34,988 bases of DNA from Bdellovibrionales bacterium (GTDB lineage Bacteria > Bdellovibrionota > UBA1018 > CAIMNF01): contig CANGWP010000001.1 of NCBI GenBank assembly GCA_947457605.1, forward strand, positions 1-34,988, written 5' to 3'. The notes below the pieces were generated by a model, which was given only the letters and a program-made list of their open reading frames with translations, made no database searches and was not told where the DNA came from. The position numbers were made by a program, and so were the translations under genes. Positions 27,966-30,715 of the stretch are shown here, piece by piece. The first letter of the stretch is position 1, and each line of letters opens with the position of its first letter.

Positions 27966-28307
27966 ATGTTAAAATATGCAAGCCCCGTTTTTCTGTTGAT
28001 CATCGCAAATCTCTTTATGACCTTTGCCTGGTATGGACACCTAAAAAACCTGAGGGACCGTCCCGTGGCTTTTGCCATTCTTTCCAGTTGGGCAATTGCG
28101 TTCTTTGAATACTGCATCCAGGTGCCCGCCAACCGAATGGGGTCTCAAACCTATTCCTTGTCTCAACTCAAGATCATCCAGGAAATCATCACGATGGTGA
28201 TCTTCGCAGGATTTGCGGTATTTTACATGAAATCGCCGATCACCCGAAACTACATCTATGCATCCCTTTGCATGTTGGGCGCCGCGTGGTTCATCTTCCA
28301 AGACTGA
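27966..28307 (+). CDS. DMT-superfamily small membrane protein (DUF486 type)
   Basis: The 113-aa protein has IANLFMTFAWYGHLK near the N-terminus, which is characteristic of this family, and four hydrophobic segments. Confidence 0.8.
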   Translation: MLKYASPVFLLIIANLFMTFAWYGHLKNLRDRPVAFAILSSWAIAFFEYCIQVPANRMGSQTYSLSQLKIIQEIITMVIFAGFAVFYMKSPITRNYIYASLCMLGAAWFIFQD

Positions 28308-28856
28308 TCAACGCTTTTTTTTTGCGATCACCTTTTTCCTGATTTTTATGGCCGACTTCTTCTTGGCGGACTTCTTCTTGGAAACGGGTTTCTTTCTCTT
28401 CGACGCGGACTTTTTTGAGGAGGATTTTCTTTTTCCTCTCACCTTCATGTGAAAGGACTGGATCAGCTTGTTCAAATGACTCAACATCTTCCTCTTGTGA
28501 ACTGGATCGACAGCAACCAGTTCCGCACCCACTTGAAACAAACCATTCGGAAGATGCTTTACCCAGGCAACGCAAACAAGCAATTTCAAGGCCTCCTCGC
28601 CAATCTGAGCTTCAAGCAGAATCAAAGCCCCCTTCTGGTATTCCCTCGCGGTTTCAAAGGAGATTCCATTGCTGGAGAGGTCGACAGAAGAATTCTCCTC
28701 AAATACCGGAGTTCCGAGAACCTGATAAAATGAATGTTTGATTCGACTTTGGACTGGAACACGAAGCCGCCGGCGACGATCAGAAGATTTAGATTCCATA
28801 AATTCAGTCTGACAAACTCCACAAAAATTTACGATGGCATTGTTTTGACGGATCAA
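28308..28856 (-). CDS. PilZ-domain protein with Lys/Arg-rich histone-H1-like C-terminal tail
   Basis: The PilZ motifs are RRRRLR (RxxxR) and DLSSNG (DxSxxG). The last ~46 residues are KVRGKRKSSSKKSASKRKKPVSKKKSAKKKSAIKIRKKVIAKKKR. The start is ambiguous (ATG at 28856 or the MESKSS start 19 codons in). Confidence 0.75.
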   Translation of the reverse strand: MIRQNNAIVNFCGVCQTEFMESKSSDRRRRLRVPVQSRIKHSFYQVLGTPVFEENSSVDLSSNGISFETAREYQKGALILLEAQIGEEALKLLVCVAWVKHLPNGLFQVGAELVAVDPVHKRKMLSHLNKLIQSFHMKVRGKRKSSSKKSASKRKKPVSKKKSAKKKSAIKIRKKVIAKKKR

Positions 28857-28943
28857 TTCTAAAACTTGGTTATCAGGATCAAATTTGAATACAAAACCGA
28901 AACTTTCCCTTAAACTGAAATTCTAAAAGGAGCCTCCCCATTT

Positions 28944-29344: not shown

Positions 29345-30715
29345 ATGGGCAATCCCCCTCCTCCCGTACTCACAGTTGGCCTGCCCAAGGAAATTGAAAG
29401 TCTGATCAATGACATTCTGAAGAATGCCTCGGTATCCAGTATCCCTTTGGACATGGATGCGATCATCGCAGAGATCACTCCAAAACCTTGCCTTGTGATT
29501 TCGGGCCCGCCGACTCCGGAGCTTCCGGCCAATGAAATTGCGCAATCCCTGCGAATGCAATTCCAGGAAATCCCGCTTCTCCTTTGCTGCACACAAAAAG
29601 AAGGCTTTGAGAGAAAAGCCTTCATCAAGAATGGATTCACCGACGCGTTTCTACTCCCGTTGGATCTCGCGAACCTGCGATCTTCCATCAGTGATCGAAT
29701 GGCAGAAGCATCCAAAGGGGAAATCCGGACCTTCCGGCCCGTAAAGATCATCGATCTTGAACCGGGAGCCACACTTGATTTTGAAACCCATATTTTTCTG
29801 CCTGCGAACAAACGCTACATCAAACTAAGCGCATCCGGGGATTCGCTCGAAACCGACCGGATTGATCGAATCAAGAAAAGCAAGTTCAGCACCATTCAGG
29901 TTCCGGCAGAGCAAATGAAGCATTTCTATTCCTACTCGGCAAAACGACTGCGGGATCTCGGGTCCGGCGCCATGTCCGTCACCGAAAAAAGGGAGAAACT
30001 GTCGGGTGCGGTTCGGGACCTGATCAGCGGCCTCTTCAGCGAGCAAGCCTCATCCTTCGAATCAGGGCAGTCGATGATGAAGGATTGCGGTCAAATCGTG
30101 AAGACCTACATCGTGGAAGGCGCGGAAAGCGAGTGGTATTCCAGGATTCAATCCGTCCTTGGGGAGCGCGGAGACAGTTACTCCCACTCGGCAAACGTGT
30201 CCACTCTGGCAGCCTTGTTTTCCATGGGCCTTGGCATTGGAAAGCCCGAGGATCTTGCGCTTGCAGGACTCTTGCATGACATTGGAATTGCCGAACTTCC
30301 CCCTGAAATCCAGATTCTTGACCCGGAACAGATGACCCCGGCTCAGCTTGAATTGTACAAGAAACATCCTGAACTCACGGTGAACTTGATCAAGAGTCGA
30401 AAACTCATCGTGCCCGAGATTGTTTCAAAAGCAATTCTCCAGCATCATGAACTCTACAACGGATCGGGCTATCCAAGCGGTCTCTTCGGAGATCGGATTT
30501 GCAAAGAGGCTCAGATCATCGCACTTGCGGACCGATTCGACTATTTGACGCGCGTTCGAGATGGCCGTCCCCTGATGACTCCCGCCCAGGCAGTGGATCA
30601 CTTGAGAAGCCTTCAAGTAAACGACCCCTCCCGGATCCACTATGAGCCCGAACTCTTAAAACGGCTTCTGAATTTGTTTCCCGGGAGCAAGCCCGAAACA
30701 TCGCCTAGTTCTTGA
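29345..30715 (+). CDS. HD-GYP domain c-di-GMP phosphodiesterase with N-terminal pseudo-receiver
   Basis: HSANVSTLAALF...AGLLHDIGI (HD) and HHELYNGSGYPSGL (GYP) are present. The N-terminal ~120 aa has a REC-like beta/alpha pattern but lacks the acidic pocket and the acceptor Asp (CLVISGPP). The gene starts 5 nt after cheY. Confidence 0.9.
   Translation: MGNPPPPVLTVGLPKEIESLINDILKNASVSSIPLDMDAIIAEITPKPCLVISGPPTPELPANEIAQSLRMQFQEIPLLLCCTQKEGFERKAFIKNGFTDAFLLPLDLANLRSSISDRMAEASKGEIRTFRPVKIIDLEPGATLDFETHIFLPANKRYIKLSASGDSLETDRIDRIKKSKFSTIQVPAEQMKHFYSYSAKRLRDLGSGAMSVTEKREKLSGAVRDLISGLFSEQASSFESGQSMMKDCGQIVKTYIVEGAESEWYSRIQSVLGERGDSYSHSANVSTLAALFSMGLGIGKPEDLALAGLLHDIGIAELPPEIQILDPEQMTPAQLELYKKHPELTVNLIKSRKLIVPEIVSKAILQHHELYNGSGYPSGLFGDRICKEAQIIALADRFDYLTRVRDGRPLMTPAQAVDHLRSLQVNDPSRIHYEPELLKRLLNLFPGSKPETSPSS

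Follow-up and report, generated by a model that had tools for sequence, protein, structure and literature searches.

A predicted single-domain PilZ receptor for cyclic di-GMP with a polylysine tail from an uncultured genus of the Bdellovibrionota

The stretch of DNA analysed here, henceforth the window, comprises 34,988 nucleotides of contig CANGWP010000001.1 from a Bdellovibrionales bacterium (assembly GCA_947457605.1). Its minus strand encodes a small protein in which a single PilZ domain, a predicted receptor for cyclic di-GMP (c-di-GMP), a second messenger, is followed by a polylysine tail. A search of 5.8 billion proteins with this protein yielded 111 relatives, all from metagenomes or metagenome-assembled genomes (MAGs). 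Of these, 101 are full-length; only a few of the relatives are named, as Bdellovibrionales or 'Tfp pilus assembly protein PilZ'. An earlier note on the window had made its interpretation dependent on the presence of the tail in orthologues. The Lys-rich tail follows the conserved C-terminal helix in 101 of the 101 full-length homologues, and the reading frame is kept in every case. Three sequences lack a tail. They end at or before the helix and reside on contigs of 509-2000 bp; for these reasons they probably are fragments.

The gene was initially delineated as an open reading frame (ORF) at 28308-28856 on the minus strand, 182 codons from a TTG at 28856. The frame exists as claimed, the start does not hold. 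The protein on record has 163 amino acids and begins with an ATG at 28799. The stretch ahead of the tail is 114-117 amino acids long and opens with M-x-x-x-x-DRR in most of the 101 aligned homologues. Because the database record starts at this ATG and the N-termini of the homologues agree with it, the TTG was abandoned as a start; the real coding sequence likely extends from 28308 to 28799. All coordinates are collected in Table 1.

The N-terminal module is a PilZ family member as judged by profile, by both ligand motifs and by the predicted fold. The Pfam profile PilZ (PF07238) scores 25.1 bits with the 163-residue form and 24.7 bits with the long ORF, the gathering cut-off being 22.5; it is above the cut-off in all of the 101 homologues (best E = 4.7e-11). 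The canonical c-di-GMP motifs which had been recognized in the DNA, RRRRLR and DLSSNG, are borne out by the family. The former contains RxxxR (R9-R13), the latter corresponds to DxSxxG (D40, S42, G45). R13, D40, S42, and G45 do not vary among the 101 homologues, and R8/R9 reach a conservation of at least 90%; in a 22-sequence alignment of the domain R8, R9, and R13 are invariant. The C-terminal helix is conserved as well. In the 101 homologues P99 is invariant, and conservation of D98, K102, H108, and L109 is at least 90%.

A structure prediction by AlphaFold2 (AF2) using the 101-sequence alignment has a mean predicted local distance difference test score (pLDDT) of 75.8. It begins with a short N-terminal arm, followed by six strands within residues 14-95 (pLDDT 78-95) and a helix at residues 99-121. 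After the helix the chain is predicted as coil up to the C-terminus. When this model was compared with the PDB by Foldseek, the top 36 matches were all PilZ proteins with a probability of 1.0, led by BcsA (4p00), Alg44 (4rt1/4xrn), MrkH (5kec, also 5kgo), MotI (5vx6), YcgR (5y6g), and PP4397. A phmmer search of the protein against the PDB returned no match, i.e., the PilZ structures were reached by the fold search alone. Counting charges in the sequence, the barrel core is slightly acidic, and the N-terminal arm, the helix and the tail are basic. The ligand site is canonical, and the protein is best described as a single-domain PilZ receptor with predicted binding of c-di-GMP.

The tail, residues 117-163, reads HMKVRGKRKSSSKKSASKRKKPVSKKKSAKKKSAIKIRKKVIAKKKR. 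Its 47 amino acids comprise 20 Lys and 5 Arg and no acidic residue, in agreement with the initial estimate that about half of it is basic. The tails of the 101 full-length members are 19-70 amino acids long (median 44) and consist of 47% Lys, 12% Ala, 9% Ser, 7.5% Thr, 5% Val, 5% Arg, and 4% Pro; Asp plus Glu account for 1.5%, Leu plus Ile for 3%, and Phe, Tyr, and Trp for approximately none. The net charge is between +11 and +34 and the charge density between 0.37 and 0.64. Lys exceeds Arg in the tail by about 9:1, as opposed to 1.3:1 in the domain.

Is such a tail a peculiarity of this gene or a habit of the organism? The assembly from which the window originates (2.09 Mb, 197 contigs, 51.6% G+C, 87% complete) was scanned for 40-residue windows with at least 18 Lys/Arg. 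Eight out of 5339 ORFs of at least 90 amino acids qualified. The PilZ tail ranked first with 22 Lys/Arg, and only about four of the other qualifying ORFs look like genuine Lys-rich proteins. A proteome-wide habit was rejected on these grounds, as only about 5 of the 5339 ORFs are comparable. Further, the genome is not AT-rich, which argues against the run of Lys being a by-product of base composition. None of eight other PilZ hits in the same genome is among its Lys-rich ORFs; these hits came from a six-frame PF07238 search which missed the gene in the window, even though hmmscan places it above the cut-off, so weakly scoring PilZ genes can escape it.

The preponderance of Lys bears on the question of the binding partner. 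Many ribosomal and RNA-binding proteins carry basic disordered extensions, and the tail might bind RNA or ribosomes such that c-di-GMP would act on translation or on the fate of RNA. RNA-binding tails are, however, usually rich in Arg, and the ratio of about 9:1 in favor of Lys is typical for polyanion binders of the H1/AlgP type, not for Arg-rich RNA motifs. In addition, the conserved neighbourhood of the gene is without an RNA-related gene. We regard an RNA target as unlikely, even considering that the PilZ protein PlzA binds both RNA and DNA, depending on c-di-GMP (PMC9915621).

Two of the other comparable Lys-rich ORFs in the same genome are of note. A Bcp-type peroxiredoxin (AhpC-TSA, E = 1.7e-40; contig C106:147-794, minus strand) is extended at its N-terminus by a Lys-rich stretch of about 50 residues, AKKKVAKKISKKKVTPKKVAKKPATK... 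The Bcp matches start within the first 25 residues of the query, i.e., inside the extension, in about 12 of 17 genomes of the genus, the present one included. Together with the PilZ tail this amounts to polycationic extensions on at least two unrelated proteins of the genus, and both may share a target such as the nucleoid. The second protein, from contig C92, is bipolar (an ORF of 221 amino acids on the minus strand, reverse-complement 2130-2795; the Pfam scan used 216 amino acids from an internal ATG). Its N-terminal half consists of Lys/Ala/Pro repeats, AKKAAPKKAAKK..., and scores 33 bits with HC2, less than the 40 bits of the cut-off. The C-terminal half forms an acidic tail with an extreme content of Asp and Glu. 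The protein could belong to the nucleoid or serve polycationic tails as a counter-ion partner.

Within the family, domain and tail present different pictures. The domains of the 101 full-length members have diverged to about 50% identity, and the tail was never lost. At the level of the protein, tails from the closest strains, in pairs with domains 97-98% identical, are 44-54% identical, compared to 39% for random pairs of tails. A query with the tail alone retrieved no alignable relative from 5.8 billion proteins, only the protein itself. Thus, the sequence of the tail diverges and its charge density is kept, which indicates that the sequence is free and the charge is held. The tail also has a rhythm. 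Basic residues recur every five positions, the autocorrelation being 0.34 at lag 5 (z = 22.8 relative to shuffled sequences) and 0.18 at lag 10, corresponding to a pattern (KKKxx)n in which xx mostly is TA, AA, SA, or VA.

The DNA discloses how such tails may grow. On the coding strand, positions 28380-28366 read caagaagaagtccgc and positions 28365-28351 read caagaagaagtcggc. The direct duplication of 15 nucleotides reported in the earlier note is therefore real, with 14 of 15 positions identical, and Tandem Repeats Finder (TRF) agrees (28349-28381, period 15, 2.2 copies, 94% matches, score 59). Of 17 genes of the genus, 13 have tandem repeats within the tail-coding DNA, namely the gene in the window and 12 of 16 orthologues. 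The period is 15 nucleotides in 11 of these 13 genes; periods of 18, 27, and 30 nucleotides exist, too, and the units differ from gene to gene. Since 13 of the 17 genes carry repeats of their own and tail length ranges from 19 to 70 amino acids, the suggestion that the tail is evolving in length by slippage is supported, the repeats in these genes being independent.

One might go further and consider the entire tail to be functionally neutral, a stretch of low complexity which replication slippage has expanded in an A-rich 3' end. The tandem repeats in most orthologues and the high variability of tail sequence and length are just what such a process would leave behind. It does not account for a tail that persists in all full-length members while the domains drifted apart, for the narrow range of charge density, the near absence of acidic residues and the intact frame, or for a pentad pattern far above that of shuffled sequences. 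We consider a neutral origin highly improbable. The alignments instead show a disordered polycation in which charge and rhythm, not sequence, are under selection.

The distribution of the fusion is narrow. Each of 16 other genomes of the genus, without exception, contains one copy, with tail. In a neighbouring genus of the same family, represented by one genome, an orthologue is located at the same position beside the receiver and HD-GYP genes; it terminates with ...DRMLKVQKRRT and has no tail. Among 301 genomes sampled across the phylum, there was one weak hit besides the matches in the own genus. When 1.84 billion cluster representatives were searched with a domain-only profile, 131 proteins were identified. 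Thirteen of these, with E < 1e-10, constitute the family, and each one which includes its C-terminus has the tail. None of the roughly 115 more distant PilZ proteins is tailed, although unrelated PilZ-polylysine fusions may exist elsewhere in bacteria. Matching genome records are mostly designated 'Bdellovibrionales bacterium' or 'Oligoflexia bacterium' and include several MAGs from lakes. Because the tail exists in all members of the genus and neither in the neighbouring genus nor in distant PilZ proteins, it is, according to these comparisons, a single lineage-specific addition to an existing PilZ gene which has been kept since. As far as these searches reach, the fusion does not extend beyond one uncultured freshwater genus of the Bdellovibrionota, bacteria of the predatory type.

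The neighbourhood of the gene connects it to c-di-GMP turnover. A CheY-like receiver, which contains the segment IISDWNMP, is transcribed divergently at a distance of 144 bp. An HD-GYP gene starts 5 bases after the receiver gene; the N-terminal domain of its product has no Pfam match, and its best relative in the PDB is Bd1817 (3tm8, E = 1.6e-14). The divergent arrangement of PilZ and HD-GYP genes exists in 13 of 17 related loci, in 11 of them with the receiver, and the other four loci end too near to the gene to show that side. PilZ, receiver and HD-GYP are arranged in the same way in two near-identical strains and across the genus boundary. Three GGDEF genes are present in the own genome. 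The firmest functional association of the PilZ gene, as far as gene order tells, is with a putative c-di-GMP-degrading module, possibly under CheY-type control.

On its other side the PilZ gene abuts, stop-to-stop, the gene for a DMT_6 membrane protein (27966-28307, plus strand), which itself is positioned after a 2OG-Fe(II) oxygenase gene. The DMT_6 gene ends at 28307, directly at the PilZ stop codon (28308-28310). As there is no spacer between the stops, the convergent transcripts have no room for separate terminators.

Table 1. Positions of the PilZ-polylysine gene, its parts and its divergent neighbours in the window.
Feature	Position	Strand	Details and basis
CDS (coding sequence) of PilZ-polylysine protein	28308..28799	-	163 aa + stop TGA at 28308-28310; ORF map, record, 101 homologue N-termini
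PilZ module, residues 1-116: Arg-rich N-terminal arm, six-strand barrel, most of C-terminal helix	28452..28799	-	Pfam, AF2, Foldseek
RxxxR c-di-GMP motif, R9-R10-R11-L12-R13	28761..28775	-	conservation in homologues
DxSxxG c-di-GMP motif, D40-L-S42-S-N-G45	28665..28682	-	D40, S42, G45 invariant in 101 homologues
C-terminal alpha-helix joining barrel to tail, residues 99-121	28437..28505	-	AF2; conserved residues
Polycationic tail, residues 117-163	28311..28451	-	composition, AF2 coil from residue 122, tails in 101/101 full-length homologues
15-nt tandem duplication, 2.2 copies, encoding KKKSA-KKKSA	28349..28381	.	TRF + direct sequence reading
Divergent intergenic region, 144 bp, between PilZ gene and CheY-like gene	28800..28943	.	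ORF map
CheY-like single-domain response regulator, 131 aa	28944..29339	+	Pfam Response_reg E = 3.1e-25; synteny
HD-GYP (HD_5) protein, 456 aa, putative c-di-GMP phosphodiesterase	29345..30715	+	Pfam HD_5 E = 9.4e-28; HDIG, GSGYP; synteny

A cheA-cheW-cheR(fusion)-cheB operon lies 3-9 kb from the PilZ gene and is syntenic in 5 of 6 long contigs. In the window the receiver/HD-GYP pair is 3.5 kb away from the operon, which occupies 17.8-25.4 kb. The receiver/HD-GYP pair suggests a chemosensory pathway with hydrolysis of c-di-GMP as its output.

With chemosensory genes this close, an adaptor of the MapZ/DgrA type has to be considered. Single-domain PilZ proteins usually act via protein partners, as known from MapZ-CheR1, YcgR, and DgrA. 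The c-di-GMP-loaded domain would bind a neighbouring chemosensory protein, i.e., the CheR or CheB fusions, or the motor, and the tail would serve only to fix it at the inner membrane, which is anionic, or at the receptor array. Besides the synteny of the operon, the CheY-like nature of the adjacent receiver and the presence of MotI and YcgR among the fold matches speak for this. Yet in the sixth long contig (G011) PilZ, CheY, and HD-GYP are kept, and the fetched 19 kb surrounding them contain no che operon. No methyl-accepting chemotaxis protein (MCP) is encoded nearby, and the tail is almost devoid of those hydrophobic and aromatic residues which might serve as an anchor. An adaptor whose tail only fixes it in place therefore appears rather improbable to us.

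How does the protein relate to known systems? MapZ/PA4608 of Pseudomonas aeruginosa, DgrA of Caulobacter, and CdbS of Myxococcus xanthus resemble the window protein up to its tail: each has a single PilZ barrel bearing RxxxR and DxSxxG, flanked by an N-terminal Arg arm and a C-terminal helix, about 115-125 amino acids altogether. Sequence relatedness to these three is no closer than the general PilZ level. MapZ and DgrA have, to our knowledge, no polycationic tail. Unlike the window protein, CdbS, too, has not been described with such a tail; its over-accumulation disturbs chromosome organisation, it reportedly acts without the need to bind c-di-GMP, and binding of CdbS to DNA was not shown (PMC10313047). 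PlzA of Borrelia burgdorferi and MrkH of Klebsiella pneumoniae couple c-di-GMP sensing by PilZ to the binding of DNA or RNA (PMC9915621). They have two domains, a PilZ-like N-domain and PilZ, and bind via folded surfaces, whereas the window protein has one PilZ domain and a disordered polylysine tail; any binding by it would be electrostatic and non-specific. CdbA of M. xanthus is a c-di-GMP-binding, nucleoid-associated protein and links c-di-GMP directly to nucleoid organisation (PMC7156744). It forms a ribbon-helix-helix tetramer, where DNA competes with c-di-GMP for one interface, and has neither a PilZ domain nor a polylysine tail.

The likeness of the tail to histone H1 and chlamydial Hc1, pointed out in the earlier note, stands with respect to composition and fails with respect to relatedness. 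The tail is a disordered basic region rich in Lys, Ala, Ser, Thr, and Pro as in H1 and Hc1/Hc2. Homology to H1, Hc1, or Hc2 was rejected: a globular H1 domain is absent, there is no linker-histone or Hc1 match, and the tail alone matches none of the Pfam families at E ≤ 1. S/TPKK (SPKK-type) motifs occur in 9 of 101 tails. The similarity consequently is a compositional one only; the tail may nevertheless work like those of H1 or Hc1/Hc2. Chlamydial Hc1/Hc2, AlgP and PhaF of Pseudomonas, and the C-terminal tail of mycobacterial HupB likewise feature disordered Lys/Ala/Ser/Thr/Pro tails, short tandem peptide repeats and rapid changes in length. The present tail differs from these by its unit, KKKxx instead of KPAA or PAKK, and is much shorter. 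Further, it sits on a second-messenger receptor instead of a structural or DNA-binding core. The earlier note had known of no such effector, and searches of open-access full texts revealed no PilZ protein described with a polylysine or Lys-rich tail. The combination does not seem to have been described previously.

AlgP and PhaF use their Lys-rich repeat tails to bind DNA and to position granules (PMC9239181). This suggests a further target. The PilZ tail might be directed to polyphosphate granules, or tether these to DNA, as the Lys-rich repeat domain of AlgP, and c-di-GMP would then be linked to granule organisation. AlgP, with a KPAA-repeat tail of H1-like composition, is found at polyphosphate granules and is needed for their spacing (PMC9239181); and the polyphosphate kinase PPK1 is encoded in 15 of 17 genomes of the genus, which also counts against a nucleoid target. 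On the other hand, neither PPK1 nor PPK2 was found in the own, 87% complete assembly, where the lack of PPK1 probably is an assembly gap rather than a loss. There is no polyphosphate gene near the PilZ locus, and the repeats are of a different type, KKKxx in contrast to KPAA. We doubt that polyphosphate granules are the target.

We infer that the protein is a c-di-GMP receptor which is tethered by its polycationic tail to a polyanion, most probably the nucleoid, and that this includes a ligand-driven change. Regarding this statement as a whole our confidence is moderate; it could go either way. The disordered tail extending from the C-terminal helix would tether the receptor electrostatically to a polyanion, and chromosomal DNA would be the most probable one. 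DNA is ranked first because the Lys:Arg ratio of 9:1 and the Lys/Ala/Ser/Thr repeats resemble DNA-binding tails of the H1/AlgP/PhaF type. The CheY/HD-GYP module would set c-di-GMP locally, and the receptor would read this level at the surface of the polyanion. Upon binding, c-di-GMP would fold the Arg-rich N-terminal arm over the barrel and shift the tail-bearing C-terminal helix. In the stand-alone PilZ protein PA4608/MapZ the C-terminal helix moves as the Arg arm closes over c-di-GMP. Since the tail hangs directly on this helix, the ligand could change how the tail is presented. Alternatively, the domain might dimerise around intercalated c-di-GMP, doubling the valency. Either change would alter the number of tails presented and, in consequence, DNA affinity or bridging, or the choice of the partner protein recruited to the nucleoid. 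Other routes from c-di-GMP to nucleic acids or the nucleoid are known from PlzA (PMC9915621), MrkH, CdbA (PMC7156744), and CdbS (PMC10313047).

Several points weigh against a c-di-GMP receptor tethered to the nucleoid. The Pfam PilZ score of the window protein barely exceeds the cut-off. The tail alone matches no DNA-binding family in Pfam, and matches to HC2 (PF07382) are weak and confined to 5 of the 101 members. AF2 is uninformative on the tail, residues 121-160 having a pLDDT of about 50. Polylysine would be equally suited to bind RNA, polyphosphate, or acidic lipids. The coupling of ligand binding to the tail is pure inference. Finally, synteny within one genus may partly reflect shared ancestry and not function.

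A bolder version of the tethered receptor is a c-di-GMP-switched factor for nucleoid compaction or bridging. Dimerisation of PilZ would turn a monovalent tail into a bivalent DNA cross-linker, or would release it, at the end of a chain leading from CheA via CheY, HD-GYP, and c-di-GMP to the PilZ-polylysine protein; the extension of Bcp would use the same nucleoid address tag. We look upon this version as doubtful. If it were true, an environmental or prey signal would directly change chromosome compaction in predatory-type bacteria, for which the dense attack-phase nucleoid of Bdellovibrio offers a comparison (PMC8445325).

The reach of these considerations is that of a fusion known, by its sequence, from one uncultured genus. 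Within it, the family offers a clean natural case of a disordered region which is selected for charge and rhythm and whose evolution proceeds through slippage in units of five residues. Among c-di-GMP receptors PilZ is the most widespread, with outputs that are defined by its fusions or binding partners. If the tethering is true, a PilZ domain joined only to a disordered polycationic tail that is under selection and evolves fast would constitute a new, minimal type of output, namely electrostatic tethering to DNA or another polyanion under the control of a second messenger.

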